Shown here piece after piece: positions 6-59,943 of a stretch of DNA of 64,000 nt. The stretch spans positions 32,811 through 96,810 of the forward strand of contig VMEM01000003.1 in the NCBI GenBank assembly GCA_007375535.1. Direction: 5' to 3'. The stretch is from Parcubacteria group bacterium LiPW_41 (GTDB lineage Bacteria > Patescibacteriota > Minisyncoccia > UBA6257 > GWB1-50-10). The stretch's first letter is position 1, and each line of letters opens with the position of its first letter. A program made the position numbers and the translations under genes. A model generated the notes under the pieces. That model had not been told where the DNA came from. It was given only the letters and a program-made list of their open reading frames with translations, and searched no databases.

Positions 6-1040
6 TTGGTTTCTGGGGGAGTTGTTATTGGCACAAAGAAAGGTAATTTGTGTCCGGTATCTATGACGATCAAAGAAGGAACACATCCATACCCTTCAGA
101 AACAAATATTAGCGTGACAAATGAAATGTTGGAGTCGTTACATGGACTTACCAATCGTGATCTCGTGATCGCTCTTATTTCTGGTGGTGGCTCAACATTA
201 TTGTGTAATCCGAAGAATATGACATGTGAGAACGAGAAAGATATCGTTCAAAAAATGTTCAAGGGTGGCGCAACTATTGAAGAGTTGAATACGATTCGGA
301 AGCATATTTCGGGTGCGCGTGGAGGAATGCTTGCGTTTCACGCATATCCTGCACGAGTGGTGTCATTCATTTTTTCAGATGTTCCTGGGAATGACATAAG
401 TATGGTTGCATCTGGTCCCACTGTAATGGACACAACCACAGTTAGTGATGCAAAAAAAATTGTAGATAAATATGGGCTTTCTAGTTTTTTTCCTGAGGGG
501 TCACTAATAGAAACAGTAAAAGATGAAAAATATTTTGAACGTGTGAGTAATCAAATTATTGTTTCCAATGATAAAGCGCTCGATGCCATGAAAGATGTTG
601 CAGAGCGTCTTGGATTTTCTACGGAAGTAGTTACGAATACGTTGCGTGGAGAAGCAAAGGAGATAGGAAAAAAAATTGTTGAAATGGTAACGATAGCTCC
701 ACCACATTCTGTTTATTTTTTAGGTGGAGAGCCAACGGTAACAGTGAGTCATGAGGGGAAGGGGGGACGCGAATTAGAACTTGTCCTTTCTGCTGTTTCA
801 CACATAAAAGATGATGCAATTATTGTTGGTTTTGCTTCAGATGGGCGCGACAATTGTGATTTTGCCGGTGCAATCTGTGATATAATGACTGCACAGAATG
901 CAAAGGAAAAGAAGATTGATCCTGATCAATATTTGAGAGAGAATGCCTCCTACAAGTTTTTTGAAACTGTGGGAGATTTTATTATGACCGGAGAAACTGG
1001 AGAAAATGTCTCGGATCTTATCTTTGCAATAAAAAAATAA
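6..1040 (+). CDS. Glycerate kinase (MOFRL/GckA family), C-terminal part. 5-prime end truncated by the window edge.
   Basis: Motif DLVIALISGGGSTLL and overall similarity to MOFRL glycerate 2-kinases. About 50-80 aa appear missing relative to typical length. The frame is open to nt 3. Confidence 0.6.
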   Translation: MVSGGVVIGTKKGNLCPVSMTIKEGTHPYPSETNISVTNEMLESLHGLTNRDLVIALISGGGSTLLCNPKNMTCENEKDIVQKMFKGGATIEELNTIRKHISGARGGMLAFHAYPARVVSFIFSDVPGNDISMVASGPTVMDTTTVSDAKKIVDKYGLSSFFPEGSLIETVKDEKYFERVSNQIIVSNDKALDAMKDVAERLGFSTEVVTNTLRGEAKEIGKKIVEMVTIAPPHSVYFLGGEPTVTVSHEGKGGRELELVLSAVSHIKDDAIIVGFASDGRDNCDFAGAICDIMTAQNAKEKKIDPDQYLRENASYKFFETVGDFIMTGETGENVSDLIFAIKK

Positions 1041-1050
1041 TTAATTATAT

Positions 1051-3498
1051 ATGTCTAACAAATTTATCGCATGGTTTGAAGAGGTGGGGATTAAAGATGT
1101 CCCAAGCGTTGGGGGAAAGAATGCTGCGTTGGGGGAAATGTATTCAAACCTTGTTCCGAGGGGAGTACGAATTCCTGATGGATTTGCGATTACTGCAGAG
1201 GGATACAGGCATTTTGTGAGAGAAACTGGGATTGATACAAAGATTGCGGAAATTCTTAAACCATTAGATACCAAGAATATTAAGCAGCTTCAAATGTGTG
1301 GAAAAACCATTCGGGAACTTGTGGTAAAAACTGAATTTCCTACTGACCTTCGAGATGCAATTATCAGTGCGTATGCAAAGATGCAAGAAAAATATGGAAA
1401 AAATACTGACGTTGCAGTGCGATCTTCTGCAACCGCTGAAGACCTTCCTGGAGCATCATTTGCAGGACAACAAGAGACATTTTTAAATGTTCGCGGTGAA
1501 CAGGAGGTTTTGCATTATGCAAGAAAATGTATTGCATCATTGTTTACTGATCGAGCAATTTCATATCGAGTTGATAAAGGATTTGAGCATACTGATGTAG
1601 CACTTTCTGTTGGTATTCAACGAATGGTGCGCTCGGATATTTCTTCTTCTGGTGTTGCATTTACCATTGATACCGAAACTGGATTTGATAAGGTCATTGT
1701 CATTAATGGTATTTATGGGCTTGGAGAATTTATTGTTCAAGGAATGGTAATTCCTGATGAGTTTATTGTATTCAAACCAACTCTTGAAAAAGGACATCGT
1801 GCAATTATTGCAAGAGATTTAGGAAAGAAACATATCAAATTGGTTTATGGAATGCATGGAACAAAACAAAAATCAGTTTCTTGGAAAGACGAACAGAAAT
1901 TTTCTCTTACTGATGACGAGGTGCTCCAGCTTGCACAGTGGTGTTTAGAAATTGAAAAATATTTTTCGGAAACTCATGGGAAATATCAACCAATGGATAT
2001 TGAGTGGGCAAAAGATGGAAACACAGGAGAGTTGTTTATTGTTCAAGCACGACCAGAAACAGTTCACTCATCTCAAGATAAATCGGTATATAAAGAATAT
2101 CGCTTGAATAAAAAAGGAGACATTCGAGTGAAAGGAATCGCAGTTGGGTCAAAAATTGCAAGTGGTGGTGTGAGAATTTTGAAGAGTGCGAGTCAACTTT
2201 CAGATTTCCAAAAAGGCGAGGTGCTTGTGACAGAAATCACTGATCCAGATTGGGAACCGATTATGAAAATTGCTTCTGCAATTGTTACAAACAAAGGAGG
2301 GAGAACATCTCATGCTGCGATTGTGTCTCGAGAACTTGGAATTCCTTGTATTGTGGGAACAAATAACGCGACAAAAGTATTAAAAAATAAAGAGGTGGTC
2401 ACTATCGATTGTTCTTCTGGAAATGAAGGAATTGTGTATGGCGGTGAACTACCATTTGAAATTATTGAGCACAAACTTGGAGAGGTTCCGAAAACAAAAA
2501 CGAAAATTATGGTGAACATTGGTGCGCCCGATGAGGCATTCAAAAGCCACTTTCTTCCGGTGCGCGGTGTTGGACTCGGACGTCTTGAATTTATTATTGC
2601 GTCACATATAAAGATTCATCCAAATGCACTTATTAACTATCAAAGTTTAAAGAAGGGGAGTAAAACTCGAGATACACGAAAACTTTTGAAATTAATAGAG
2701 GAAATGACAGTTGGGTATGAAGATAAGGCTGAATACTATACCAGTGAGCTTGCTGAAGGAATCGCAAAGATTGGAGCAGCATTCTATCCAAATGATGTTA
2801 TTATCCGTTTTTCTGACTTCAAAACGAATGAGTATTCAAAACTTGTAGGTGGATCGCTTTATGAACCACAAGAAGAGAATCCAATGTTGGGATGGCGAGG
2901 GGCATCACGATACTATGATCCAAAATTTGTTGATGCATTTGGGCTAGAATGTGAGGCGATGCGACGAGTGCGAGAAGATATGGGATTGCAAAATGTTATT
3001 CCAATGATCCCATTTTGTAGAACGCCGGAAGAAGGAAGAAAAGTTGTTTCTATTATGGCAGAGCATGGACTTGATAGAGCAAAAGATAAGAAGCTTAAGA
3101 TTTATGTGATGTGTGAGATTCCTTCAAATATTCTTCTTGCTGATGAGTTTCTCGATGTCTTTGATGGAATGTCGATTGGCTCAAACGATCTTACACAACT
3201 TACTCTTGGACTTGATAGAGACTCTGGGATTGTGACTCATGTTGCAAATGAAAATAATGCATCAGTAAAAAAACTTATTGCACAAATCATTGAGAAGTGT
3301 AGAGCACAAAAGAAATATATCGGAATTTGTGGGCAGGCTCCATCCGATTATCCAGAGTTTGCTGAATTTCTTGTTGAGGAGGGAATTGAGAGTATGTCAT
3401 TAAGCCCAGACTCAGTTATGAAGATGATAGGGGTGGTTCAGAAGAAAGAAAAGGAGGTGGCGAGTACAAGGAGAAAAGCGCAGCTTCCACAGAAATAA
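1051..3498 (+). CDS. ppsA: Phosphoenolpyruvate synthase (pyruvate, water dikinase)
   Basis: 815 aa. N-terminal ATP-grasp region. PEP-utilising mobile His domain GGRTSHAAIVSRELGIPCIVG. C-terminal PEP/pyruvate-binding TIM barrel. Confidence 0.9.
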   Translation: MSNKFIAWFEEVGIKDVPSVGGKNAALGEMYSNLVPRGVRIPDGFAITAEGYRHFVRETGIDTKIAEILKPLDTKNIKQLQMCGKTIRELVVKTEFPTDLRDAIISAYAKMQEKYGKNTDVAVRSSATAEDLPGASFAGQQETFLNVRGEQEVLHYARKCIASLFTDRAISYRVDKGFEHTDVALSVGIQRMVRSDISSSGVAFTIDTETGFDKVIVINGIYGLGEFIVQGMVIPDEFIVFKPTLEKGHRAIIARDLGKKHIKLVYGMHGTKQKSVSWKDEQKFSLTDDEVLQLAQWCLEIEKYFSETHGKYQPMDIEWAKDGNTGELFIVQARPETVHSSQDKSVYKEYRLNKKGDIRVKGIAVGSKIASGGVRILKSASQLSDFQKGEVLVTEITDPDWEPIMKIASAIVTNKGGRTSHAAIVSRELGIPCIVGTNNATKVLKNKEVVTIDCSSGNEGIVYGGELPFEIIEHKLGEVPKTKTKIMVNIGAPDEAFKSHFLPVRGVGLGRLEFIIASHIKIHPNALINYQSLKKGSKTRDTRKLLKLIEEMTVGYEDKAEYYTSELAEGIAKIGAAFYPNDVIIRFSDFKTNEYSKLVGGSLYEPQEENPMLGWRGASRYYDPKFVDAFGLECEAMRRVREDMGLQNVIPMIPFCRTPEEGRKVVSIMAEHGLDRAKDKKLKIYVMCEIPSNILLADEFLDVFDGMSIGSNDLTQLTLGLDRDSGIVTHVANENNASVKKLIAQIIEKCRAQKKYIGICGQAPSDYPEFAEFLVEEGIESMSLSPDSVMKMIGVVQKKEKEVASTRRKAQLPQK

Positions 3499-3508
3499 TC
3501 AATAAACA

Positions 3509-3535
3509 AAACCCGCAGTAAAAGCGGGTTTTTGT
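3509..3535 (+). terminator. Rho-independent terminator after ppsA
   Basis: Hairpin aacccgc-agtaaa-agcgggtt followed by a T-run. Confidence 0.6.
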
Positions 3536-3556
3536 GTTACAATGGGTATATAAACA

Positions 3557-4578
3557 TGGATGTACAAAATCAACCAAAAATTGGTTTCTTTGAACTTGAG
3601 GGGTGGGAGGAAAAACTTATTCGTGCAGAAATAATAAATGCAGAATGTCGTTTTTCAAATGATAAAATTGAAGAAGGAAAAATTCCCGCACAAACAGATT
3701 TTGATGCGATTTGTATTTTTGTTGACTCGGTAATTAATGAAAAGACGTTAGAATATTTTCCAAAACTTAAATTTATTGCAACCCGTTCAACGGGATATGA
3801 CCATATTGATTTAGCGGCCTGTAAAAAGAAGGGGATTGTTGTTACTAATGTTCCTGGGTATGGAGATAATACTGTTGCGGAGTTTGCGTTTGGGTTACTT
3901 CTTACTATGACAAGAAAGATTTATGATGCAATTGATCAGGTGAAAGAAACTGAATCGTTGTCTCATCTTCGTTTGCGTGGAATTGATTTAAATAATAGAA
4001 CAATTCTTGTTATTGGTACGGGAAGAATTGGAACACATGCAATAATGATTGCAAAGGGATTTTCAATGAATGTAATTGCGTTTGATCCAAAACCAAAACC
4101 AGAACTTGCGACAAAACTTGGATTTCAATATGTTTCTCTTGAGGATGGTTTGCGACAAGCAGATATTGTAACTATCCATTGTCCATTGAACGATCAAACA
4201 AAACATCTTCTGAACACTGAGACGATGCGATATGTAAAAAGGGGTGTTTATTTAGTGAATACTGCCCGAGGGGGAATTATTGAAACATTTGCATTGATTG
4301 AGGCGCTCCTTGAGGGAAGGATTGCGGGTGCCGCACTTGATGTATTAGAAGACGAGGAGCAGGTGAAGGATGAGGTTCAGTTCTTTAGTAAAAAAGGAGC
4401 AAAGGCAGAGGATTTACGATTAGTGCTTGCAAACCACAAACTAATGAGTATGCCGAATGTATTTATCACCCCACATACTGCATTTAACACGCAGGAAGCA
4501 TTGGAGAGAATATTAAAAACAACTCTTGAAAATATTCGTGGGTATATGAGTGGAAATCTAGTCCATATTGTTTCATAA
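3557..4578 (+). CDS. D-isomer-specific 2-hydroxyacid dehydrogenase (hydroxypyruvate/glycerate/D-lactate dehydrogenase family)
   Basis: NAD-binding GTGRIGTHAIMIAKGF and catalytic-domain similarity. The start is placed at ATG 3557 (MDVQNQ) because ATG 3532 lies inside the terminator and a -10-like TACAAT. The mRNA may be leaderless. Confidence 0.8.
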
Positions 4579-5260
4579 TCTTTGTATGTTTTCTTTTCTT
4601 TTAGAGGTATCAAAATATATACTTCCAGTAATACTTGTGGCTGTTTTTTTGGTTGCGTGTGCGCGGTATATATTTAAGTTTTCTTTTTTTAATACAAAAA
4701 GCGGATTGTTTTTTTCTTTTAGGAATTTAGCAATTATTGCTGTAGTAGGAAAAATATTTAATGCGGGATTGTTAACGTACTTGCAATATTCTGTGTGGAA
4801 GCAGAGCGGTGCGGTAGGTGAGGTATTTCTCAATTCCCCAATATCGAAAGATCTTCCTTTTTCTGCTGCGAAAAACTTTGAATGGTTATTGAATAATAAA
4901 TTTGGATATTTTCTTTTTTATTCATGGGGCAGATTTTGGTTGTCTGTGTTGATATCTCTATTGGTTGCGTATGTTTTTTATCTTTTATTGCGTGCTTTAA
5001 AGCTTAAAACCGAGCGTTTTTTTGAAGAGGGAGAGACCGAGTTGGGTTTTTTGTGTGCTCTCGTTGTTGGGTGGCCTGGATTTGTATTGTTTGTTCCATT
5101 TGTTTTTTTGAGTGTTGTGTTCATTTCAATTGTAAAACTATTATTTTTTAAAGAAAAATACACCACACTCGGTGCGCCATTCATACTTGCGACCGTTATA
5201 ACATCCATTTTTGGTAATTACCTTATTTTCTTGTTTGGATTGGGAGTTCTTAAGGTGTAG
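4568..5260 (+). CDS. Polytopic membrane protein, possibly a divergent A24-type prepilin peptidase-like protein
   Basis: Multiple TM helices. The segment GETELGFLCALVVGW resembles the GGGDVKLLAALG motif of PilD-type peptidases, with Asp replaced by Glu. Sits upstream of a pilin-like gene. Weak assignment. Confidence 0.3.
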   Translation: MFHNLCMFSFLLEVSKYILPVILVAVFLVACARYIFKFSFFNTKSGLFFSFRNLAIIAVVGKIFNAGLLTYLQYSVWKQSGAVGEVFLNSPISKDLPFSAAKNFEWLLNNKFGYFLFYSWGRFWLSVLISLLVAYVFYLLLRALKLKTERFFEEGETELGFLCALVVGWPGFVLFVPFVFLSVVFISIVKLLFFKEKYTTLGAPFILATVITSIFGNYLIFLFGLGVLKV

Positions 5261-5271
5261 AATTAGGGTAT

Positions 5272-6225
5272 ATGGAAATACAGAATATTGAACATCCAAA
5301 AGCTTCTCCGAAGGATGTTTTTTTGCATCTTGGATCTATTGTTGCACTTTATGGAAGTGCGATAGCGTTTTTGATTCTTACGTTCAATCTCTTTGATATG
5401 TGGATGCCTGATGTTGCTGAGTATTATAGCGCTCGAGGATCTGCGTCGTTAATCAGGGGGGCAATTGCTGCACTTATTGTTTTTTTCCCAATGTATATTG
5501 TTTCATTAAAAATGCTTCATAAAGCATACACAGAGGATGAGACACGAAAAAAGGTTTGGATACGAAAGTGGTTGCTCTATTTCACACTATTTGTGACAAC
5601 ATTCGTTATTGCGGGAGATCTTATTTCACTCATATATAATTTTTTAAATGGAGAGTTCACGGTGAGGTTTATTCTTAAAGTGTTGGTAGTGTTTTTTGTT
5701 GCTGTGTCTATCTTCTGGTATTATCGACGTGAGTTGAAAGACTTAATTGATAAAACTACTTTTTATGTAGGTATTGGTATTTCATCAATTATTCTAATAA
5801 GTATTGTTATTGGATTTATGTTTGCGGGCTCTCCAATGAAAGAAAGAACGCGGAAGCTTGATGAGCAGCGAATTTCTCATCTTTCAACACTTCAGATGAA
5901 TATTGTTGAGTATTGGCAAAACAAGGGAAAACTTCCTGAAAATCTTTCTGTATTGAGAGATGATTTGAGAAATATCTCCATTCCTCAAGATCCTGAAACG
6001 AGAACTGAATATGGATATGGAATAAAGGGAGAAGACACATTTATATTGTGTGCGGTGTTTGGAGGAGATAAAGAAAAGGAGAATGGAGTTTCCTATGATG
6101 ATTATTATTTTGGTATTAGGGGTGATCATTCCTGGAATTATAAGGCTGGAAAATCTTGCTTTGAAAGAACAATAGATGCTGATTTCTTTAACCAAAAGAA
6201 TGGCGTCAAAGCACTTCCTCAGTAA
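5272..6225 (+). CDS. DUF5671-like four-TM N-terminal domain fused to a type IV pilin/pseudopilin-like C-terminal domain
   Basis: N-terminal 150 aa have four TM segments. Then a hydrophobic helix followed by QRISHLSTLQMNIVEYWQNKGKLPENLS, which resembles GspG/pilin globular-domain openings. Confidence 0.45.
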   Translation: MEIQNIEHPKASPKDVFLHLGSIVALYGSAIAFLILTFNLFDMWMPDVAEYYSARGSASLIRGAIAALIVFFPMYIVSLKMLHKAYTEDETRKKVWIRKWLLYFTLFVTTFVIAGDLISLIYNFLNGEFTVRFILKVLVVFFVAVSIFWYYRRELKDLIDKTTFYVGIGISSIILISIVIGFMFAGSPMKERTRKLDEQRISHLSTLQMNIVEYWQNKGKLPENLSVLRDDLRNISIPQDPETRTEYGYGIKGEDTFILCAVFGGDKEKENGVSYDDYYFGIRGDHSWNYKAGKSCFERTIDADFFNQKNGVKALPQ

Positions 6226-6449
6226 TGAAAATAATCGTAAGGGTTGAACCACAAGCAAGGGAAAGAAAGGTTGAGAAGATTGGAGAGCGGTGTTTTAGGG
6301 TACGCACAACTAAACCAGCAAAAGAGGGAAAAGCAAATTCGGATGTTATTGAATTACTTTCGGATTATTTAGGTGTTTCAAAGTCAAATATTGAGATTAT
6401 TTCAGGTCATCGTGCTAAAGAAAAAATTATGATGATTGATGGGTTATGA
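6225..6449 (+). CDS. DUF167 (YggU/UPF0235) family protein
   Basis: 74 aa. Pattern RV-P-A-E-K-V...KPAKEGKAN...L-L--S-I-I-G similar to YggU. Start overlaps the upstream stop. Confidence 0.7.
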   Translation: MKIIVRVEPQARERKVEKIGERCFRVRTTKPAKEGKANSDVIELLSDYLGVSKSNIEIISGHRAKEKIMMIDGL

Positions 6450-6871
6450 AAAAGATAGTTGTTACAATTGTTTTCGCAGTGACAATCTTGTGTGTTTATT
6501 TTTTGGTTCAAGGTATAAAAAAAGAGGAAGCACAATATGGCAATACCAAACTTCCTGAAATTATTGTTGATTCTCCGAGATCGGGATCGGTAATTCAATC
6601 TCCACTTATGATTCGTGGAAAAGTAAAGGGTAGTTGGTTTTTTGAGGCAGTATTTCCGATTGTCCTAAAAGACAATGAGGGAAAAGAAATTACTTCTTCT
6701 CACGCACGAGCAGAAGGAGAGTGGATGACTGAAGGATATGTGCCTTTTTCTGCCGAACTTCTTTATCCTACGCAGAAGAGAGGAGAGGCTGGTTTTCTTG
6801 TCTTTAAGAGAGACAATCCATCAGGTTTGCCTGAAAATGATGCATCAGTTAGTATTCCAGTTATCTTCTAA
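6446..6871 (+). CDS. Gmad2 immunoglobulin-like domain lipoprotein/secreted protein
   Basis: Signal/TM at N-terminus. Pattern IVDSPRSGSVIQSPLMIRGKVKGSWFFEAVFPIVLKD...GEW typical of the Gmad2 domain. Confidence 0.6.
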   Translation: MKKIVVTIVFAVTILCVYFLVQGIKKEEAQYGNTKLPEIIVDSPRSGSVIQSPLMIRGKVKGSWFFEAVFPIVLKDNEGKEITSSHARAEGEWMTEGYVPFSAELLYPTQKRGEAGFLVFKRDNPSGLPENDASVSIPVIF

Positions 6872-6883
6872 TCCAAGATTTCA

Positions 6884-6910
6884 ATCTGTTGAGGTCCGAC
6901 CTCAACAGAT
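6884..6910 (+). promoter_or_regulatory. Perfect 13-bp-stem palindrome (ATCTGTTGAGGTC cg GACCTCAACAGAT) between the Gmad2 gene and uvrB. A third GACCTCAAC copy follows.
   Basis: Read directly from the sequence. No T-run follows on the + strand, so it is not a canonical intrinsic terminator. Possible operator or RNA hairpin. Confidence 0.4.
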
Positions 6911-6937
6911 TGAGACCTCAACGGATAAAAAAAACAT

Positions 6938-9019
6938 ATGGGGAAATTATTTGAATTAATTAGTGAAAACAAGCCAGCGGGTGACCAACCGAAAGCGATT
7001 GAGTCGCTTGTTTCTGGTTTAAAAAATGGAATGCATTCGCAGACTCTCTTGGGTGTCACTGGTTCTGGAAAAACATTTACGATTGCAAATGTGGTCGCAG
7101 AACTCGATACTCCAACACTAGTAATCGCTCACAACAAGACATTGGCGGCGCAGTTGTGCAACGAGCTTCGCGAATTGTTTCCCAATAACTCGGTGCATTA
7201 TTTTGTTTCATATTACGACTACTATCAACCCGAAGCATATATTCCAACCTCTGATACATATATAGATAAGGAAGCAATGATAAATGAAGAGATTGATAAG
7301 CTTCGTCATGCAGCAACAACTTCACTTCTCACTCGACGTGATGTGATTGTGGTTGCAAGTGTTTCGTGTATTTATGGACTTGGAACTCCAGAAATTTATA
7401 AAAAAAATATTTTCCACTTTAAAGAAGGAGATTCTGTAGATCGCGCAACACTTATCAAGCAGCTTATCGGATTGCAGTTTTCTCGCACCAACTCTGACTT
7501 AAAAAGAGGAACGTTTCGTGTGAGAGGTGATCAGTGGGAGATAATGCCAACAGACAAGGAAATTATTTTTTCGTTTGAGCTTGAAGACGGAATAATTAAG
7601 AAAATTTATGAAATTAATCCAGTAGAAGGATTTGTTCGCGGAAAAACAAAAGAACTAAAGGCGGTGTTCATTCCTCCTGCAAAACATTTTATTACAAAAA
7701 AAGAGGTTCGGGATAATGCGATAAAGGAAATAAAAAAAGAGCTAAAGCAACAACTTGCGAAGTTTGAGAAGGAGGGGAAATTACTTGAGGCAGAACGTCT
7801 TGAGAGAAGGACTAAATTTGATTGTGCGATGATTGAGGAGATTGGGTATTGCAATGGAATCGAAAACTATTCCCGTCATCTTTCTGGAAGGAATGCTGGC
7901 GAACCACCTGATACATTACTTGATTACTTCCCAAAGAAAAAAGATGGAAGCGCAGATTTCATTACAGTAATTGATGAATCCCACGTGACTGTTCCACAAC
8001 TTGGAGGAATGTATGCGGGAGATGCGGCTCGCAAAAAAACACTCATTGAATTTGGATTTCGACTTCCTTCTGCAGCAGATAATAGACCTTTGAATTTTAA
8101 AGAGTTTGAAACACGTGTTGGAAATACCATTTATGTTTCTGCAACTCCTGCAGAATTTGAGAAAAAGAAATCAAAAACAGAAGGTCAGATTGTTGAACAG
8201 ATTATCCGTCCTACAGGGCTCATTGATCCAAAAGTTACTATTTGTGGAGTTCGTGGGCAGGTTCAGGATTTAATTGGAAGAATTGAAGCACGAGAAAAAC
8301 TTCCTGATGGAACAAATCCACGTGTGCTGGTTACGACACTTACAAAACGGATGGCAGAAGACCTTTCGCAGTTTCTTGAGGAAAAAAATATAAAAGTTAC
8401 TTATTTACATAGTGATGTAAAGACTCTTGATAGAATAAAAATTCTTACGAAATTGCGAAGAGGGGAGATTGATGTACTTGTGGGAGTGAACCTTTTGCGT
8501 GAGGGACTTGATTTGCCAGAAGTAGAACTTGTTGCAATTTTAGACGCAGACAAAGAAGGATTTTTGAGAAGTGAGACTTCGCTTATTCAAACTATTGGAC
8601 GCGCTGCAAGAAATGTTCGTGGTGAAGTGGTGATGTATGCCGATTCAATTACTGGTTCGCTTGAACGTGCAATTCGGGAAACGGAGCGAAGAAGAAAAAT
8701 TCAACTTGCATATAATAAAGAACACAATATCACCCCAAAAACCATAATCAAAGAAATCAAAGATATTCTTCCGACTGGTGAGATTGCAGCAATTGAATTA
8801 AGTGTTGCGCCAAAAACAAAGAGGGGGATAGAGGAATTGTTGAAAGAGAAGGAGAAAGAAATGAGGGAAGCCGCAGAAGAATTAAATTTTGAGTTGGCCA
8901 CGCTTTTAAGAGATGAGATAAAAGAGCTTTCAAAACATCTTTCAGAAAATAAGAAGAAGGCAGTTAAAGTTGGAAAAGAGAAAAAAGAAAAGGCTCGAAA
9001 ACATTTTTCAGATAAATAA
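6938..9019 (+). CDS. uvrB: Excinuclease ABC subunit B
   Basis: 693 aa. Walker A GVTGSGKTFT, helicase motifs and a C-terminal UVR coiled-coil (EELNFELATLLRDEIKEL). Confidence 0.95.
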   Translation: MGKLFELISENKPAGDQPKAIESLVSGLKNGMHSQTLLGVTGSGKTFTIANVVAELDTPTLVIAHNKTLAAQLCNELRELFPNNSVHYFVSYYDYYQPEAYIPTSDTYIDKEAMINEEIDKLRHAATTSLLTRRDVIVVASVSCIYGLGTPEIYKKNIFHFKEGDSVDRATLIKQLIGLQFSRTNSDLKRGTFRVRGDQWEIMPTDKEIIFSFELEDGIIKKIYEINPVEGFVRGKTKELKAVFIPPAKHFITKKEVRDNAIKEIKKELKQQLAKFEKEGKLLEAERLERRTKFDCAMIEEIGYCNGIENYSRHLSGRNAGEPPDTLLDYFPKKKDGSADFITVIDESHVTVPQLGGMYAGDAARKKTLIEFGFRLPSAADNRPLNFKEFETRVGNTIYVSATPAEFEKKKSKTEGQIVEQIIRPTGLIDPKVTICGVRGQVQDLIGRIEAREKLPDGTNPRVLVTTLTKRMAEDLSQFLEEKNIKVTYLHSDVKTLDRIKILTKLRRGEIDVLVGVNLLREGLDLPEVELVAILDADKEGFLRSETSLIQTIGRAARNVRGEVVMYADSITGSLERAIRETERRRKIQLAYNKEHNITPKTIIKEIKDILPTGEIAAIELSVAPKTKRGIEELLKEKEKEMREAAEELNFELATLLRDEIKELSKHLSENKKKAVKVGKEKKEKARKHFSDK

Positions 9020-9030
9020 TTTGGGTAAAA

Positions 9031-9058
9031 AATGCCCCGCATAACGCGGGGTCTTTTA
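9031..9058. terminator. Bidirectional intrinsic terminator between uvrB (+) and the convergent minus-strand gene
   Basis: Hairpin gccccgc-ataa-cgcgggg flanked by an A-run upstream and a T-run downstream. Confidence 0.7.
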
Positions 9059-9060
9059 AT

Positions 9061-9720
9061 TTAATTAACAGTAATTCTCGCTCCAATGACAGCAATTTTT
9101 TCCTGCATGTAATAGGTACCATACAAATAAATTGCTTTATATGTTTCCTTTTCCGCAATTGAAATTTTGAATTCTCCATGGGCTCCAAAGCCCATATCAG
9201 ACTCAAATCTTCCTCCAACGGCAACAAGATCCAATAATGGAAAAAGTCCACGGACATCAATGTATGGGTCGGTATCAAATTGACCCTTTTCTATTCGATA
9301 ATAAATAAATACTTGTTTTTGTAAATAATAATTATCTTTCGTTACGTATCCGAGGAATCCTTCAACTCCAACGATCCAGCCGAGATCCTTGTTTCTTGGA
9401 TTCTCTCTTCTTTGAAGTCCCACCAGCGGTGCTATTTCAAAGAAACGTGTTGAATATGAGACACCAAGAAATCCGGCTTCTGATGGGCTTTTTTCTGGGT
9501 GAGAAACTGAAACTTCTCTCGACCTAGAAGATCTCCAAGAGCCAACAAGAGTTATTTGTTCGGAGATGCCGAAGCGTGTATATAGTCCCCAGGTTGACCA
9601 CTTTTCGGGTGTCGTACCGAATGGGGTGCCACACACATCGCCAGTTATGGCAACTTGTCCAAATGCAGTTGGTGCGATGAGTAAAAGAATTAGAAAAGCG
9701 ATTATTTTTGGCGCTTTCAT
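9061..9720 (-). CDS. Secreted hypothetical protein with a signal peptide
   Basis: N-terminal MKAPKIIAFLILLLIAPTAFGQ signal. No recognisable domain. Confidence 0.5.
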   Translation of the reverse strand: MKAPKIIAFLILLLIAPTAFGQVAITGDVCGTPFGTTPEKWSTWGLYTRFGISEQITLVGSWRSSRSREVSVSHPEKSPSEAGFLGVSYSTRFFEIAPLVGLQRRENPRNKDLGWIVGVEGFLGYVTKDNYYLQKQVFIYYRIEKGQFDTDPYIDVRGLFPLLDLVAVGGRFESDMGFGAHGEFKISIAEKETYKAIYLYGTYYMQEKIAVIGARITVN

Positions 9721-9792
9721 CTGTTTTTCTCCTATTTATTATTAGTAAAGAATTGTAACTATATTATACACAAATTTATAGAAATGTCAATA

Positions 9793-9820
9793 TAAAAAAT
9801 ACTCCGCATTAGCGGAGTAG
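9793..9820 (-). terminator. Intrinsic terminator for the minus-strand gene 9827-10237
   Basis: Hairpin tactccgc-atta-gcggagta. On the minus strand it is followed by a T-run (A-run 9793-9799 on the plus strand). Confidence 0.6.
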
Positions 9821-9826
9821 TGTTTA

Positions 9827-10237
9827 TTAGAAGTTTTGAGGGAATCTTTTATAGGTTGTTTTTTTTGAATTCCAACCCTCTGGATATTTGCTCTTTGGTT
9901 TTTCTTTTGCATCAACCTCAGGTTCTTCAATCTCATTTTTTTCGGGTTTTTCACCCTTAAGATCATTGATTTGAGATTGCAGATCTGTTATTGCGTCTGC
10001 ATCTTTTTCTTGGCGTTCTTCAACACCGGTTATTCTTTCTTCATGATTTTTTAAGGTTTTATCAACCTTCTTTTTCCACTGAGTGTGAGAATTTTTTGAA
10101 ACTGTTTCAATTTTTTTATTCTCGACTTCCTTGGAAGAAGGGGAGAAGATATTAGTGAGGCAGTACAATCCGAAAACGAAAAGCGCTAGAACCAAAATAA
10201 CGCCAGCAACAACTTGAAGAATTTGTCTTCCAGTCAT
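9827..10237 (-). CDS. Membrane-anchored coiled-coil protein (hypothetical)
   Basis: One N-terminal TM helix, then a charged K/E-rich helical region. Confidence 0.5.
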   Translation of the reverse strand: MTGRQILQVVAGVILVLALFVFGLYCLTNIFSPSSKEVENKKIETVSKNSHTQWKKKVDKTLKNHEERITGVEERQEKDADAITDLQSQINDLKGEKPEKNEIEEPEVDAKEKPKSKYPEGWNSKKTTYKRFPQNF

Positions 10238-10344
10238 AATGAGCTCCTTTATATATTTGTTTAAGATGAAAACATTGTATTATATATTGGTGATTTTGTC
10301 AACCACATGGAGAAATGTATAAACCTTGACAAATACGTCTAATA

Positions 10345-10373
10345 TTGACTTTTTCTCACTTTTGCGGTACAAT
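10345..10373 (+). promoter_or_regulatory. Sigma-70-type promoter TTGACT-N17-TACAAT for the first surface-protein gene
   Basis: Exact -35 TTGACT (10345-10350), 17-nt spacer, -10 TACAAT (10368-10373). RBS AAAGGAGAAAAA precedes ATG 10413. Confidence 0.5.
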
Positions 10374-10412: not shown

Positions 10413-12422
10413 ATGAAAAAGATAATCTTTTTCTTTTTATTTGCTGTAATGTTTTCAACCTTGGGTTTTGCCCAGGTGAGCAATGTTTTCAGAGATTACA
10501 ATTCTGTAAAAGGGGAAAAAATTGAAGTTTCTTGGATTACACCAAAGCTCGACGATATGTCTGAAATTCGTATATATGATGGAAAGATTTCATCTGTTGC
10601 GGATTTGAAAATGGCAAAACGAATAGAAACAGTTTTACCCATTCCAGGAGAGAGGCAATCAGTCTATTCTTCTAAGTTTGGTGATATAACAGTTGTTGTA
10701 ATTGGAACTTTTGGGGAAATTAAATCAATTAATATAATTTCTTCATCCTTATGCGAAACCTTTTATGTTGCGCCGTTAAATAGTGCATCTCTCAAAAAGG
10801 AAACTTCAGTTCAATCTATTTCTGGTGTCGATTTACCTGTTTTAGTTGGGTATGAAAACTTAACTGAAAAAGGAGTTGAACTCAGTGATATCGCACAAGA
10901 AGGAAAGTCGTTCAAATTCTTTATGAATACGACGACTCTTGCAGGTAATCGATATATGAAGCTGGCCGCACCGCTTGGTCGGGATATAACATTCCCTAAA
11001 GGGTCAAAAATTAGTGGAAATATGATGGTTCCTGCACCTCTTGGTGATGTTCAGTTATCGGTTACCCTTAAAAAAGCTGGTGTTGTCATTATGAACTCAG
11101 CACTCTACCAAATTTCGAAAGGTGATTGGAGAAGACAAAGTTTCCAATTCCCTGAGATTGATGGTGTGTTTGATGAGGTACAGTTAAATTTTTCTTATCT
11201 TCAGAATGAGTCAGGTCTTCGAAATTTGTTCCTTGATGGCGTTTACGTTGTTACTGGAACTACCGAAGTATTAATTGATGATTGTAATGGAACTGGATCC
11301 TCAGTTACAAAGCCCGGCGTGACGACATTAGGAAATCCATTAAATGGGATGACTGGTGTGAGTATCACACCAACATTTACTTACAATCAAACAATAAATA
11401 CAACACAGTACCAACTTCAAGTTTTAACGAAGAATGGAACTGTTGTATATGATCAAAAAAATGCTGCAGTAACTACTACACTAACTACTCCGCTTGCATA
11501 CAACACACAATATGATTGGCGTGTAAAATGCTGGAACGGAAGCACACCAAGTGATAATTGGAGTGCAACATTTAGTTTTACAACAATTACTCAGGTAGTT
11601 TCCGTGCCAGTATTCACCATTGCAAGTCGTGATGATTCTCAAAATTTCATCACGCTCAATTGGAGTGGTGGAGAAGTTGAATTTCAATTGATGAATATGG
11701 GTGGAACAGTTTTACAAAATCCATCTTCTTCAGTATCACCATTTGTATTCTCTAGTTTGGCTGACGGAGATTATCAACTAAGAGGAAGGTTCAAGAATCC
11801 TCAGAGTGATTGGAGTCAGACAATTTTGTTTAAGGTAAGAACACAGGTTGTTGTCATTCTTCCAACTATTCAAACCCCAACAAACAACAGTACCGGAAAT
11901 CCAGTTTTAACTGTTGTTTCTTTTACTGGAAATGCTCAGAGTTATGAAATTATGGTTGCAAGAAATTCAGAATTCACCAATGATCCTCGGACACATACAA
12001 CTACAACAAGTCCATTTTCGATCCCGGGCCTTGCTCCATCAACGACATATTATCTGAAGATGAGAGCAAAAATTGGAAATACATATTCTGCATATACTGC
12101 AACAATAAATTTCATGACGATCGGAACTACTGGAGTGGATGAAAATAATTCTTTGCCGACAAAATTTAATTTGTTGCAGAATTATCCAAATCCATTCAAT
12201 CCAAGTACACTTATTCAATTCTCCTTGCCTGCTTCTTCTTTAGTAAAAATATCAATATTTGATGTTGCTGGTAGGGAAGTGAAGCAGTTAATAAATCAGG
12301 AATTTTCTGGCGGTACTCACTCCGTACGTTTTGATGGAGTAGGAATGGCGTCTGGAATGTATATTTATGCTGTCCAGACAAGATTCGGGTTACTTTCAAA
12401 GAAAATGACCCTGGTAAAATAG
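10413..12422 (+). CDS. Secreted multi-domain surface protein with fibronectin type III-like repeats and a T9SS-type (Por_Secre_tail-like) C-terminal sorting domain
   Basis: Signal peptide MKKIIFFFLFAVMFSTLGFAQ. Three FN3-like repeats (YDWRVKCWNGS..WSATFSFTT pattern). C-terminus LLQNYPNPFNPSTLIQFSLP...ISIFDVAGREVKQL...GTHSVRFDG...SGMYIYAVQT...KKMTLVK matches the T9SS C-terminal domain consensus. Confidence 0.7.
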   Translation: MKKIIFFFLFAVMFSTLGFAQVSNVFRDYNSVKGEKIEVSWITPKLDDMSEIRIYDGKISSVADLKMAKRIETVLPIPGERQSVYSSKFGDITVVVIGTFGEIKSINIISSSLCETFYVAPLNSASLKKETSVQSISGVDLPVLVGYENLTEKGVELSDIAQEGKSFKFFMNTTTLAGNRYMKLAAPLGRDITFPKGSKISGNMMVPAPLGDVQLSVTLKKAGVVIMNSALYQISKGDWRRQSFQFPEIDGVFDEVQLNFSYLQNESGLRNLFLDGVYVVTGTTEVLIDDCNGTGSSVTKPGVTTLGNPLNGMTGVSITPTFTYNQTINTTQYQLQVLTKNGTVVYDQKNAAVTTTLTTPLAYNTQYDWRVKCWNGSTPSDNWSATFSFTTITQVVSVPVFTIASRDDSQNFITLNWSGGEVEFQLMNMGGTVLQNPSSSVSPFVFSSLADGDYQLRGRFKNPQSDWSQTILFKVRTQVVVILPTIQTPTNNSTGNPVLTVVSFTGNAQSYEIMVARNSEFTNDPRTHTTTTSPFSIPGLAPSTTYYLKMRAKIGNTYSAYTATINFMTIGTTGVDENNSLPTKFNLLQNYPNPFNPSTLIQFSLPASSLVKISIFDVAGREVKQLINQEFSGGTHSVRFDGVGMASGMYIYAVQTRFGLLSKKMTLVK

Positions 12423-12425
12423 ATA

Positions 12426-12453
12426 CAACCGCCCCAATGGGGCGGTCTTTTTA
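12426..12453 (+). terminator. Intrinsic terminator after the first surface-protein gene
   Basis: Hairpin accgcccca-atgg-ggcggt followed by a T-run. Confidence 0.7.
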
Positions 12454-12456
12454 TAC

Positions 12457-12485
12457 TTGACTTTTTTCTATTTATAGTATACAAT
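12457..12485 (+). promoter_or_regulatory. Sigma-70-type promoter TTGACT-N17-TACAAT for the second surface-protein gene
   Basis: Same hexamers and spacing as the promoter at 10345. Confidence 0.5.
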
Positions 12486-12493
12486 ATTGACAC

Positions 12494-14857
12494 ATGAAAA
12501 AATATTCAGTACTAGCATTTTTGGTCGGAATATTAGCACTTGTGCCAGTAACCTATGCGGCACCAGTGTCTCTTTCTGCGTCTGCAACGGGGCAGAACTC
12601 AGTATCTCTTTCTTGGACTACTGATGTTGATATTACTTCACACCAGGTATTTTATTCTACGAGCGCATTAAACGATTCAAACGTTTTATCCGCACAATCG
12701 TATAGTTCAATGCCACCATCAGCACCAAACGCTTCACAGTCAGTGACAATTTCTGGACTTACTGCAGGAACGACATATTACTTTGCATATCGTTTTGTTG
12801 ATACTATAGGAAATTCTTTTGTTTCTTATTCATCTGCACAAACTCAGCAAGCTTCTGGTGGTGGAGGAGGAAATGGGGGAGGAGGTGGAAGTGGAACGCC
12901 AGCACCAACACCTGTTGCAAACTTTTCTGCAACACCAGGATCAACATATGTTGATTTAAGTTGGGATACTCCTGTATCAACAGTGCTTTCTCAGTTTGAA
13001 GTTCACTATAGTACAAATCAAATGGTGGGAACTACATTCTCATCAAACTTTTCTCCAGCGGGAGTTCCATTACCGATATCGGGAACAAGACAAAGTGTTC
13101 GTGTTGATGGACTTACTGCAGGAACCACTTATTACTTTGGTATTCGCACTATAAACGTTGTTGGTGAAGCGTCTTCAATTAGTTATAGTTCAACACAAAC
13201 AACTGGAGGACAAAATGGTGGTGGAGGAACTACAATTCCTGATCCGATTGCTGTAACAAATATTACTGCGGTAAGATTTGGAACTTCTGCAACACTTGCA
13301 TGGGATACTCCAAATGTGACCATGCTTTCTCAGTTTGAAGTAAAGGGAAGCACAAGTGAAATAAATTCTACAAATATTTCTTCACTTTCAGTGATTTCTG
13401 GTGCCCCACTTCCAATCCCTGGAACACGACAATCGTTTGTTGTTTCAAATATTCCTGCAACCGGTGCATATTATTTTTCGATTCGTACTGTTAACACCGT
13501 TGGAAGGTTTTCTCCAATCACTACCGTTAATATACTTGATGATATAAATGGAGTTCGTCCAGTTTCAAATCTTACTGGAAATGGAGGAAATGCCTTTATT
13601 GACCTTGGATGGGATACTCCAACATCAACAAATTCTTCAATGTTTGATATTCGTTGTTCTTCTTCAGAACTTAATGCATCAAACTTTACTTCTGGAGCTA
13701 TTGTAAGTGGTGCGCCACTTCCAATTCCTGGAACTAAACAAGGAGTTCGCGTTCCAAGTCTTACTAATGGAACTAAATATTGGTGTGGAGTTCGCGTTCA
13801 AAATACCATTGGTGAATATTCTTCTATTGTATTTGTATCGGCAACACCTTCATCAGGTGGTGGAGGAGGCGGAGGTGGTGGCGGTGGAGGCGGGGGCGGA
13901 GGAGGGGGAACCCCGACAACGATTGGTTCGCCATCAATTGTTATTAATGATGGTGCAATAAAGACTGATCGAACACTTGTTACTCTCACTCTTTCAGCAA
14001 CAAATGCGAACGAAATGATGATTTCGAATAATGAAGATTTTCGTGATGCAAAGTGGGAGCCATACACAACAAAAACACAGTGGGTATTACCATGGGGAAA
14101 CGGTGGAAAAATTGTATATGCGAAATTTAGAAATTCATATACTGTTTCTGCAGGACCGGTATCTGATTCGATTATTTTAGAAATCGGAACGGTTACGCCA
14201 CCAGTTGTTCCGCCGGTAATTATCATTGAGCCAGTTGCTCCAGTGATTCCAGTTGGAAACCGACCATATACAACAATTATTTCTATTTCACCAAGTGAAA
14301 TATATATTCCAAGCGAAGACAAGGTTGTTGTTGTACTTACTGCTCATCCAGGTGAATCACCAAAATATGGAGCACATCTTGAGTTAGATTATCCAACCGA
14401 TATATTGACCGTTGATACTGTTGATTATGGTGATGGATGGGTGCCTGAATATGAGCCAGCATATAACTATGACAATGCTATTTCAGGAAGACTCATTAAA
14501 ACTGCAGGACATGGTTCATTTAACGAACCAATACATTTTGCAACAATAACATTTACTGTGAAGAAGTCGGGAGTGGGAATGTTTGATACAAACTCATTCA
14601 GTGCACTTCGAGAATTACCTGAATATAAAACTGGTACATATCTCACTCAAGCAAACTCATCTGTTATTGATTCAAATGTAGGGAAGACACGTCTTATGTT
14701 TGCAAATCTTGTTTCTCTTACGACTCAAGATAATACTATTGCAGTCTTAAGTGCATTCATATTCTTGTTCCTCTGTTACGTTGCATACGTTATTTCAATG
14801 CATCGCACTGGACGAAGAGAATTTGTATTGCCACTTCCACTTAAGAAACAAAAATAA
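12494..14857 (+). CDS. Large cell-surface protein with five fibronectin type III repeats, Gly-rich linkers and a C-terminal transmembrane anchor
   Basis: Signal peptide. Repeats of the form LSWTT/LSWDTP...LTAGTTYYF. Gly-rich linkers including an 18-residue poly-Gly. C-terminal hydrophobic helix IAVLSAFIFLFLCYVAYVISM plus a basic tail. Confidence 0.7.
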   Translation: MKKYSVLAFLVGILALVPVTYAAPVSLSASATGQNSVSLSWTTDVDITSHQVFYSTSALNDSNVLSAQSYSSMPPSAPNASQSVTISGLTAGTTYYFAYRFVDTIGNSFVSYSSAQTQQASGGGGGNGGGGGSGTPAPTPVANFSATPGSTYVDLSWDTPVSTVLSQFEVHYSTNQMVGTTFSSNFSPAGVPLPISGTRQSVRVDGLTAGTTYYFGIRTINVVGEASSISYSSTQTTGGQNGGGGTTIPDPIAVTNITAVRFGTSATLAWDTPNVTMLSQFEVKGSTSEINSTNISSLSVISGAPLPIPGTRQSFVVSNIPATGAYYFSIRTVNTVGRFSPITTVNILDDINGVRPVSNLTGNGGNAFIDLGWDTPTSTNSSMFDIRCSSSELNASNFTSGAIVSGAPLPIPGTKQGVRVPSLTNGTKYWCGVRVQNTIGEYSSIVFVSATPSSGGGGGGGGGGGGGGGGGGTPTTIGSPSIVINDGAIKTDRTLVTLTLSATNANEMMISNNEDFRDAKWEPYTTKTQWVLPWGNGGKIVYAKFRNSYTVSAGPVSDSIILEIGTVTPPVVPPVIIIEPVAPVIPVGNRPYTTIISISPSEIYIPSEDKVVVVLTAHPGESPKYGAHLELDYPTDILTVDTVDYGDGWVPEYEPAYNYDNAISGRLIKTAGHGSFNEPIHFATITFTVKKSGVGMFDTNSFSALRELPEYKTGTYLTQANSSVIDSNVGKTRLMFANLVSLTTQDNTIAVLSAFIFLFLCYVAYVISMHRTGRREFVLPLPLKKQK
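13858..13911 (+). repeat. Imperfect (GGN)18 trinucleotide tract encoding poly-glycine inside the surface-protein gene
   Basis: ggtggtggaggaggcggaggtggtggcggtggaggcgggggcggaggaggggga read directly from the sequence. Confidence 0.8.
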
Positions 14858-32720: not shown

Positions 32721-32731
32721 CATTCTAGTTT

Positions 32732-33283
32732 ATGAATATTGATCGAATTATATATGGAACTTGGGACTCTATTGTAGCTTTTTTCTCGCTTCCGTGGGAT
32801 ATGTATTTTACTGTTTTGCGTAATATTTTTGTTATTATTGATGTTGCGCTTGTTGTTCTTATAGTTTCCCTTTTTGTAAAAGCAAGAACATTTGCCCCTC
32901 CACTTTCAAAGAAGTTCTCACAACCTTCTCTTGTGGGTCTTTTGAAGAGAAAGGGTTTAATTCAAAAGTATGTTTCGATGTGGGAAAAGATTGTTGAAGA
33001 TTCTGAAAGCGCTCCGCCACATTCGTATACAACTGCGATTGTGAATGCTGATATTTTAATCGATGAATTATTAAAAGATGCGGGATTTGAAGGAAAGGAT
33101 ATGGGAGAGCGCTTGGGAAAACTTAATGGACTTCGAATCAAATCTCTTGATGGAGTTTGGAGTGGGCACCGTTTGAGAAATAAAATTGTTCACACATCTG
33201 GATTTGAGGCTTCAAAAAAGGCAAAAGATGAAGCACTTAAGGTGTATGAGGAATTTTTGAAGGAGGTAAAAATACTCTCATAA
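32732..33283 (+). CDS. Module gene 2: single-TM membrane protein. Candidate detached membrane anchor of the downstream ATPase.
   Basis: 183 aa. TM helix VIIDVALVVLIVSLFV. Its stop overlaps the start of the ATPase gene by 1 nt, suggesting translational coupling. Confidence 0.45.
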   Translation: MNIDRIIYGTWDSIVAFFSLPWDMYFTVLRNIFVIIDVALVVLIVSLFVKARTFAPPLSKKFSQPSLVGLLKRKGLIQKYVSMWEKIVEDSESAPPHSYTTAIVNADILIDELLKDAGFEGKDMGERLGKLNGLRIKSLDGVWSGHRLRNKIVHTSGFEASKKAKDEALKVYEEFLKEVKILS

Positions 33284-35738: not shown

Positions 35739-35780
35739 CGCGTTTCTGTGTTTTTGTTTATGTTAAGATGAAATAGAACA

Positions 35781-58889: not shown

Positions 58890-59078
58890 TCCCGTTAGAG
58901 ACGGTTTGTGAATGCATAACAAGTATTCTCACTATTATCTTTACCTGACACATAAGGAATAACAACAACGGAAATGGTTATTTATAACACTTACAATTAT
59001 ATCAATACACTGGTCGCACATACTACAGAAAATGGCTGTGACTCTACTCACATAACCATTTCCTGTCTCTAACGGGAT
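58890..59078. repeat. IR-bounded intergenic element, copy C (TCCCGTTAGAGAC ... GTCTCTAACGGGA[T]). Ends at the start codon of the pilin gene.
   Basis: 13-bp terminal inverted repeats, about 189 bp overall. Carries a compensatory change relative to copies A and B (GAAAC/GTTTC becomes GAGAC/GTCTC). Internal 10-bp hairpin ggaaatggtt / aaccatttcc. Confidence 0.7.
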
Positions 59079-59889: not shown

Positions 59890-59943
59890 AAAACTCAAAT
59901 CTCAAAGCGCAAACATCAAAAGTGAAACGCAAAGGTCAAAAGT

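Follow-up and report, generated by a model that had tools for sequence, protein, structure and literature searches.

Between the genes uvrB and uvrA in a 64-kb stretch of DNA from Parcubacteria group bacterium LiPW_41 (the whole stretch, part of a 230-kb contig, is called the window below) lies a gene for a protein of 669 amino acids, recorded as LiPW41_399, which ends, as judged from profile matches and motifs, in a genuine type A C-terminal domain (CTD) of the class that type IX secretion systems (T9SS) use. From the N-terminus to the C-terminus the protein consists of a signal peptide, an N-terminal extension resembling fibronectin type III (FN3) domains, a beta-sandwich 'head', a stalk of FN3- or immunoglobulin (Ig)-like domains and the CTD. 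The features of this gene are as follows.

10413..12422, + strand: gene for the 669-amino-acid CTD protein (open reading frame with Pfam and NCBIfam matches)
10413..10472, + strand: predicted signal peptide of the Sec/signal peptidase I type, read from the sequence as MKKIIFFFLFAVMFSTLGFA/Q (…LGFA/Q), so that Gln would stand at +1 of the putative cleavage site
12183..12419, + strand: type A T9SS-class CTD by profile, residues 591-669, with the motifs NYPNPFNP, G-x-Y-x-Y and a terminal K-M-x-L-x-K (PF18962, TIGR04183 and AlphaFold2 model)

The C-terminal sequence had been quoted in a preliminary description of this DNA, and the quotation matches the translation of the open reading frame exactly; positions 12150-12422 hold the codons for the last 90 amino acids and the stop codon.

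The C-terminal domain and its conservation

The preliminary description took this tail for a type A T9SS sorting domain on an FN3-repeat surface protein in a genome context like that of the candidate phyla radiation (CPR), with which profiles, motifs and position all agree. PF18962 (Por_Secre_tail; gathering score 27 bits) matched the 669-amino-acid protein at 38.8 bits (E 1.1e-9) over residues 591-664 and profile positions 2-72 of 75, and TIGR04183 ('T9SS type A sorting domain'; cut-off 23 bits) matched it at 36.4 bits. The similarity is thus more than marginal, since both curated cut-offs are passed and nearly the whole PF18962 profile is covered. The isolated tail of 90 residues scored 35.3 bits on PF18962 and 42.0 bits on TIGR04183, and relatives of the protein reached 39.6-51.4 bits on the latter model. 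The type B model (TIGR04131/PF13585 CHU_C, cut-off 27 bits) gave only 16.2 bits with the full protein and 13.4 bits with the tail alone, and FlgD_ig stayed below its threshold as well (25.9 vs 27 bits). We assigned the CTD to type A because the type A profiles score above, and CHU_C below, their cut-offs. The domain match ends 4 residues before the stop codon, in a protein with a predicted N-terminal signal peptide.

The AlphaFold2 model, built from an alignment of 10 family members, places strands at residues 586-587, 600-605, 609-616, 622-631, 634-639, 648-656 and 659-667 (pLDDT ~76-86), that is, about seven short strands within 586-667, the number expected of the Ig-like sandwich of two antiparallel sheets in a type A CTD. 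A search of PDB sequences returned no solved relative of the CTD at E <= 1. As a whole, the modelled protein is a series of all-beta domains (overall pLDDT 68), in which a small N-terminal domain is followed by the 'head', a family-specific beta-sandwich of ~150 residues (~residues 140-290, pLDDT ~80), and then by the FN3/Ig-like stalk. When the model was compared with the PDB, Foldseek returned strings of FN3 or Ig domains, among them those of receptor ectodomains and adhesins, of an S-layer protein and of the 'grappling hook' GhpA, which is secreted by a T9SS.

In the 10-member family alignment, 25 of the 88 columns of the CTD are invariant (28%) vs 48 of the 581 columns elsewhere (8%), which is a 3.4-fold higher density of invariant positions in the CTD than in the rest of the protein. 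The invariant positions include NYPNPFNP, G648-x-Y650-x-Y652 and K664-M665-x-L667-x-K669, corresponding to motifs B, D and E with their lysines; the ending F[AG]Q of the signal peptide is also invariant in 10/10 members. In T9SS cargo CTDs, motifs A, B, D and E are surface-exposed, and the motif E lysines, which lie in the last 13 residues, are required for secretion (PMC10202324). Moreover, motifs B, D and E have been modelled against the extracellular loops of PorV, and the motifs mediate contacts with PorV and PorM (PMC10202324). A vestigial sorting domain, one of the options raised in the preliminary description, is unlikely because the T9SS recognition motifs remain invariant despite the fast divergence of the remaining protein, of which the CTD is the best-conserved part.

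There is a single CTD motif in the window, where no second one was found, and there is likewise one in each of the related loci L002, L003 and L004. This is unlike loci of the Fibrobacteres-Chlorobi-Bacteroidetes (FCB) type, in which 2-3 CTD genes lie within 4-23 kb. Organisms with a T9SS have on average about twenty or more CTD-bearing genes per genome (TIGR04183 description), and such a multitude is not seen in the sequence covered, which comprises the window and the loci of the relatives. Sequence, position, predicted fold and motifs place the domain in the type A CTD family, but do not by themselves make the protein functional T9SS cargo.

A four-gene cassette between uvrB and uvrA

The CTD gene belongs to a four-gene cell-surface unit that is fixed between uvrB and uvrA in a narrow clade of Paceibacteria. 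The order is uvrB, a protein of ~219 amino acids, a membrane protein of ~130 amino acids, the CTD protein, an FN3 protein with a transmembrane (TM) anchor, and uvrA. The remaining genes and signals of this cassette in the window are listed here.

9061..9720, - strand: orphan gene for a 219-amino-acid protein whose signal peptide (…TAFG/Q) precedes a transmembrane beta-barrel predicted to have 12 strands and to be of outer-membrane type
9827..10237, - strand: gene for a 136-amino-acid protein that has a single TM helix at its N-terminus, a coiled coil and the conserved C-terminal motif KY.KGWD…FPENW (open reading frame; alignment with syntenic homologues)
12494..14857, + strand: gene for a 787-amino-acid protein with FN3 repeats (fn3, 81.8 bits, four stretches) that is TM-anchored at its C-terminus, found with the CTD gene at all syntenic loci
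9763..9790, - strand: promoter-like TTGACA-16-TATAAT of the barrel gene (12/12 matches to the sigma-70 consensus)
10274..10302, - strand: promoter-like TTGACA-17-TACAAT of the 136-amino-acid protein gene (11/12 consensus matches)
10345..10373, + strand: promoter-like TTGACT-17-TACAAT of the CTD gene (consensus match only)
12457..12485, + strand: promoter-like TTGACT-17-TACAAT of the FN3/TM gene (consensus match)
9034..9052, unstranded: terminator-like hairpin between the convergent uvrB and barrel genes
9800..9819, unstranded: terminator-like hairpin between the 136-amino-acid protein and barrel genes
12428..12446, unstranded: GC-rich hairpin with a T run, bidirectional terminator-like, directly after the CTD stop codon

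Each cassette gene in the window thus has a near-consensus promoter-like site of its own, and strong hairpin terminators stand between the genes. The promoter architecture that had been described as common to the CTD gene and the next gene is indeed present, with TTGACT-17-TACAAT before both. In Pfam the 136-amino-acid protein gave only weak matches of coiled-coil type. The downstream neighbour had been called a paralogue of the CTD protein with a C-terminal TM helix; the TM anchor is there, but the word paralogue applies only loosely (FN3-type repeats, best BLASTP match 29% identity, E 2e-4). Among relatives, this 787-amino-acid FN3/TM gene has a hypervariable middle and conserved ends, and in the window its product carries a run of 18 Gly residues (~13.86-13.92 kb) and other Gly-rich linkers. 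With a GC content at third codon positions (GC3) of 0.197, this repeat-rich gene, at 12-15 kb, is the sole tetranucleotide outlier of the window (z ~-4.8). An extra N-terminal domain (residues 34-112; 10512..10748) occurs only in the CTD protein of the window and in a close relative, P0002, in which a few residues of it are missing. As these residues resemble the FN3-like repeats of the adjacent 787-amino-acid protein (motif LPIPGxRQS; 29% identity and E 2e-4 by BLASTP), the similarity suggests domain shuffling between the two neighbouring genes.

The same layout was found at L002 (303-kb contig Ga0394679_009643), L003, L087 (401-kb contig Ga0272380_10000027), L088, L089, L090, L094 and L095 (746,631 bp). 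At the syntenic loci the opposite-strand protein has 215-221 amino acids, the small membrane protein 111-140, the CTD protein 526-735 and the FN3/TM protein 661-787, and the flanks shared with the window comprise genes for glycerate kinase, phosphoenolpyruvate synthase, DUF5671, Gmad2, patatin, TK and uvrC. Relatives of the 669-amino-acid protein on other Parcubacteria or Paceibacterota contigs all carry PF18962, and in GenBank one of them, RJQ26043.1, already bears the name 'T9SS C-terminal target domain-containing protein [Candidatus Parcubacteria bacterium]'. The longest of these contigs (L095, JGI contig Ga0074198_1000007) bears the cassette near its end, at 175..7717, and its length is close to that of a complete CPR-size genome. 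At L004 (JGI contig Ga0172373_10000221, 7400..9385), where UvrB is 74% identical, the CTD protein and an FN3-like protein also lie between uvrB and uvrA, and an unrelated upstream gene encodes 138 amino acids.

Within the conserved syntenic backbone, the cassette genes are the fastest-diverging ones. Compared with the proteins of the window, those of the relatives have the following amino acid identities.

UvrA and UvrB: 84-95%
Other cytoplasmic neighbours: 69-89%
Envelope proteins (DUF5671, Gmad2 and a 230-amino-acid membrane protein): 52-75%
Barrel: 42-54%
136-amino-acid protein: 33-47%
Passenger of the CTD protein: 39-63%
CTD: 47-76%

Against L003 and L087, with UvrA 95% identical, nucleotide alignment fails over 9.03-12.45 kb and in the middle of the FN3 gene, and returns in the flanks at 74-85% nucleotide identity; synonymous sites are saturated at 67-72% nucleotide identity. 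Furthermore, the similarity of the cassette departs from the UvrA/UvrB relationships, for example, UvrA is 95% and the CTD 47% identical between the window and L003, while the respective values for L002 are 85% and 76%. This suggests strong diversification, possibly under diversifying selection, or exchange of alleles in the cassette, as would be expected of exposed contact structures.

The 219-amino-acid protein has no match in Pfam or NCBIfam, and in a set of 5.8 billion proteins its family numbers 12. When 1.84 billion cluster representatives were searched with a profile, its own cluster was the only one returned; a k-mer search likewise found nothing beyond this small family, and there was no match among PDB sequences or viral contigs. 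The AlphaFold2 model shows 12 strands of ~10 residues (pLDDT 81, pTM 0.77), and the top Foldseek matches of the model are all outer-membrane barrels. Across the family the strands alternate between a hydrophobic face (mean Kyte-Doolittle value +1.69) and a polar, charge-rich face (-1.05). The predicted model is thus a closed antiparallel barrel with two-faced strands of ~10 residues, in a protein with a signal peptide, and we predict from these three agreeing lines that the protein is an outer-membrane-type barrel. It did not match the T9SS barrel families PorV, PorP/SprF, PorQ or PorT/PorG. All family members end in …V-x-G-x-R-I-x-V-N, that is, in Asn and without an aromatic beta-signal, and no BamA-like gene was found in the window.

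The placement of the window in CPR/Parcubacteria is supported by the source record and by lineage-typical families, and its relatives are named Candidatus Parcubacteria or Paceibacterota. The context families noted earlier, DUF5671 (78 bits), Gmad2, Germane and an N_methyl pilin, were all found, together with a VirD4/TrwB-type coupling protein, MreB/C/D, PBP2, SecD/F, ribosomal proteins and tRNA synthetases. Family scans of the window bear out the earlier remark that it has no outer-membrane biogenesis genes, as they revealed no family for outer-membrane biogenesis, lipopolysaccharide or T9SS; in addition, none of the T9SS core genes (GldK/L/M/N, SprA/Sov, PorV, PorU, PorZ/Q, PorT/E) was detected in the window or in the 20-kb flanks of the relatives. 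The broader statement that everything else looks Gram-positive-like holds for the context families and is complicated by the predicted outer-membrane-type barrel at 9061..9720 on the - strand. In an independent Logan assembly (run SRR8863432) the order of genes is the same: uvrB, 219 amino acids (-), 136 amino acids (-), 669 amino acids, 787 amino acids, uvrA, patatin and TK. The composition of 9-12 kb is typical of the window (GC3 0.27-0.30, tetranucleotide z +0.1 to +0.6), and a recent island of horizontal transfer is ruled out by the typical GC, GC3 and tetranucleotide use there.

Elsewhere in the window, 31332..37403 on the + strand carries five mostly unannotated genes around the VirD4/TrwB-type coupling protein (33283..34626; PF10412, E 1.4e-10), a cluster that probably represents the type IV secretion system of monoderm type that has been reported in Patescibacteria. 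At 59077..60297 on the + strand, a long type IV pilin (270 amino acids, with the N_methyl motif) is directly followed by a gene for a 23S rRNA-intervening-sequence protein (PF05635, 85 bits). Neither an rRNA nor a tRNA gene lies in the window, and no Rfam family reaches its gathering score there. On the + strand the GC skew falls from ~0.2 to 0.01-0.06 over 9-14 kb, while the GC percentage is unchanged.

Origin and candidate function

Among the matches listed, stalk and CTD of the protein align with Melioribacteraceae/Ignavibacteria proteins at 27-33% identity over 300-370 residues, and the CTDs of the family are 53-66% identical to individual Ignavibacteria or Bacteroidota CTDs, which is as close as they are to each other. 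When genome collections were scanned with the family alignment, FCB CTDs dominated the matches through the NYPNPFNP pattern, so that the scan yields the nearest FCB relatives among the matches listed rather than a census of CPR. In a neighbour-joining tree the CPR CTDs were not monophyletic among 147 FCB CTDs; since that FCB set was pre-selected for similarity and the domain has only 88 amino acids, multiple transfers cannot be inferred from it, and as the comparison CTDs were chosen for likeness to the query, only a general FCB affinity can be claimed. The signal peptides add another trait: Gln stands at the predicted +1 position (…F[AG]Q) in all members of the CTD-protein and barrel families, in the window at 10413..10475 and, on the - strand, at 9655..9720, and also in the homologues at L002, L003, L087 and L089. 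Other exported proteins of the window, namely the FN3/TM protein and an M23 peptidase, do not have this Gln. Gln at +1 is the 'Q-rule' of Bacteroidota, and the Q-value of 77% in Ignavibacterium album is the highest reported outside Bacteroidota (PMC5837995). The simplest history, as far as these comparisons indicate, would be a single, old transfer by which the ancestor of the clade gained a secreted protein of FCB origin, with local diversification thereafter. Of the options considered in the preliminary description, horizontal acquisition with a retained and repurposed domain has the best support, given the alignment of ~370 residues with Ignavibacteriota/Melioribacteraceae and a CTD identity of up to 66%.

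We put at slightly below one half (about 0.45) the probability of the following reading as a whole: an old acquisition from an Ignavibacteriota-like source, with the CTD kept as a T9SS-independent docking module and the barrel as its likeliest partner. An Ignavibacteriota-like FCB donor would long ago have supplied the FN3 stalk, the CTD and the signal peptide with its Gln at +1, and the acquired sequence would since have come to match the recipient genome in composition. A T9SS is not expected in this lineage; the 669-amino-acid protein would be exported by Sec and would therefore not be sorted via SprA, PorV and PorU afterwards. The CTD may have been retained as a small beta-sandwich docking module that still binds a partner by its T9SS recognition surfaces (motifs B, D and E), and the most economical candidate for this partner would be the co-encoded 12-stranded barrel, by analogy with the binding of CTDs to PorV or of a type B CTD to a PorP/SprF barrel. 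The TM-anchored FN3 protein and the small coiled-coil protein could then complete a variable adhesin or contact structure for interactions with hosts or phages. The docking module is more likely than the specific partnership with the barrel.

Several points weigh against this reading. The absence of T9SS and outer-membrane genes covers only 64 kb of the genome, and the inference of the donor rests on FCB CTDs selected for their similarity to the query. Because the whole neighbourhood is syntenic in the clade, adjacency alone says little about a functional link of the barrel with the CTD, and over 10 pairs the similarity of the barrels correlates only weakly with that of the CTDs (rho 0.43), too weakly to serve as evidence for the link. 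Moreover, the more distant relative L004 has neither the 219-amino-acid barrel gene nor the small TM gene; hence the barrel is not universally coupled to the CTD protein, and the partnership is weakened by this locus as well as by the synteny of the whole region. The barrel itself was predicted from a shallow alignment of 12 sequences, and no lipid environment for such a barrel is known in CPR.

It is unlikely, though by no means far-fetched, that the CTD is a leftover or a generic Ig-like cap that stabilises the stalk, in which case the FCB-derived gene product would be exported by Sec alone and the barrel would be functionally unrelated. The Ig-like sandwich of the CTD, with its sub-threshold FlgD_ig matches, would suit such a cap, as would the CTD protein without a barrel at L004 and the separate promoter and terminator of each gene, and synteny alone does not prove a link. 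Against it stand the 3.4 times denser invariant positions in the CTD and their location on the surface-exposed motifs B, D and E, including the final K-M-x-L-x-K, rather than on core residues only; a mere cap also fits poorly with a constraint on the CTD that persists while the rest of the protein diverges very fast.

A use of the CTD on another organism is improbable. The ultra-small bacterium may be an epibiont of an FCB host, such as a member of Ignavibacteriota, and may display a counterfeit CTD that docks externally on the surface-exposed PorV/PorU/PorZ attachment machinery of that host; the barrel, once secreted, may enter the host's outer membrane, and the cassette would vary by tracking host variants. 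We give a low probability to such a captured T9SS 'address label' with a self-inserting barrel, used on a diderm FCB host, in which the counterfeit CTD would be docked on, or even ligated by, PorV/PorU and would form with the barrel in the host outer membrane a fast-evolving, host-specific tether or conduit. The CTD is within the range of real Ignavibacteria CTDs (up to 66% identity), and the motifs predicted to touch the extracellular PorV loops are invariant. According to PMC11285876, species-specificity of CTDs causes T9SS incompatibility, which would be a reason for diversification, and the cassette is the fastest-evolving part of its neighbourhood. A self-contained barrel without the terminal aromatic residue of the beta-barrel assembly machinery (BAM) type, in turn, has no obvious home in a monoderm. 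On the other side, the T9SS normally reads CTDs from the periplasmic side, and nothing at the N-terminus of the CTD protein evidently anchors it to the Parcubacterial cell. If this reading is true, a sorting signal for secretion would here for the first time be reused as a device to attach one species to another, and a CPR bacterium would for the first time be seen to use a barrel of outer-membrane type.

Very improbable, too, is an outer layer or membrane of its own in this clade of Paceibacteria, in which the barrel sits and which the CTD protein crosses or is anchored to by a minimal T9SS-like, or a type V- or FapF-like, export and anchoring route. The resemblance of the predicted 12-stranded barrel to autotransporter translocators, FapF and KdgM, the strong promoter of the barrel gene and the retention of the CTD are in keeping with such a layer. 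The few CPR with a described envelope are monoderm, and the envelope architecture of most CPR is undescribed (PMC8871954); the former speaks against an outer layer and the latter leaves room for it. Within 64 kb there is no outer-membrane biogenesis, lipopolysaccharide or T9SS gene, each locus has a single CTD gene, and the barrel is an orphan family of a few close genomes that is missing from L004.

Finally, an assembly or binning artefact that fused a Bacteroidota or Ignavibacteriota fragment to a CPR contig, which was among the earlier possibilities, has nothing in its favour but the taxonomic oddity of the CTD and is ruled out for practical purposes by the same gene order in the independent assembly, the cassette between CPR-type uvrB and uvrA on at least seven syntenic contigs from different samples (up to 746 kb), the window-typical composition and the promoter form common to the neighbouring genes.

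CPR bacteria are treated as monoderm and host-dependent, and their mechanisms of attachment are largely unknown. A constrained CTD and an orphan predicted outer-membrane-type barrel in the most divergent stretch of the locus are a concrete candidate for a CPR surface or host-contact structure. They also call for caution where CTD annotations in metagenome-assembled genomes are taken as signs of a T9SS. Were these genomes to have a T9SS or an outer layer instead, assumptions on CPR envelopes would change.

Comparison with known systems

Both the T9SS and the CTD as its signal are regarded as marking the diderm FCB superphylum (PMC11205867, PMC10202324). In the literature searched we found no paper linking T9SS CTDs with Patescibacteria, CPR or Parcubacteria, the co-occurrences of these terms being unrelated, and the names of the LiPW genomes did not occur there. 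Like a type A cargo of the T9SS, the 669-amino-acid protein has a Sec signal with Gln at +1, an Ig/FN3 passenger and a C-terminal sandwich of ~75 residues and seven predicted strands with motifs B, D and E and terminal lysines. Unlike such cargo, it is encoded in a Parcubacterial genome, with one CTD gene in 64 kb (many in FCB genomes) and without T9SS or outer-membrane genes in its vicinity; neither PorU cleavage nor linkage to anionic lipopolysaccharide (A-LPS) can be assumed for it.

The clustering of a gene for a CTD surface protein with a beta-barrel gene is reminiscent of type B cargo and PorP/SprF, for example SprB-SprF, where barrels of the PorP/SprF type hold the cargo on the cell surface (PMC10202324, PMC11205867). 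The differences are that the CTD here is of type A, that the barrel has 12 predicted strands and ~200 residues without a sequence match to the PorP/SprF, PorV, PorQ or PorT models, and that the barrel and CTD genes are divergently transcribed from separate promoters. In predicted fold, strand number and strand length, the barrel resembles the autotransporter translocators (BrkA, Hbp, NalP), the KdgM/NanC porins, intimin and FapF, and it shares with 12-stranded outer-membrane barrels the hydrophobic/polar alternation of the strands and the charged polar face. It departs from them in having no detectable homology and a terminal Asn in place of an aromatic residue, in standing alone without passenger or plug, and in belonging to a lineage for which neither an outer membrane nor BAM is known.

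With the fibrillar adhesins of monoderms, the CTD protein has in common an Ig/FN3 rod, a distinct head and a C-terminal anchoring element, and its 787-amino-acid neighbour is TM-anchored. Por_Secre_tail has been listed among the anchor domains of fibrillar adhesins, mostly from Bacteroidetes (PMC8286594). Unlike the LPxTG or TM anchors of monoderm adhesins, however, the anchor domain here comes from a diderm-specific secretion system. What the locus presents is thus a known sorting domain, but in a lineage and setting where its machinery is not expected, beside an orphan barrel predicted to be of the outer-membrane type.

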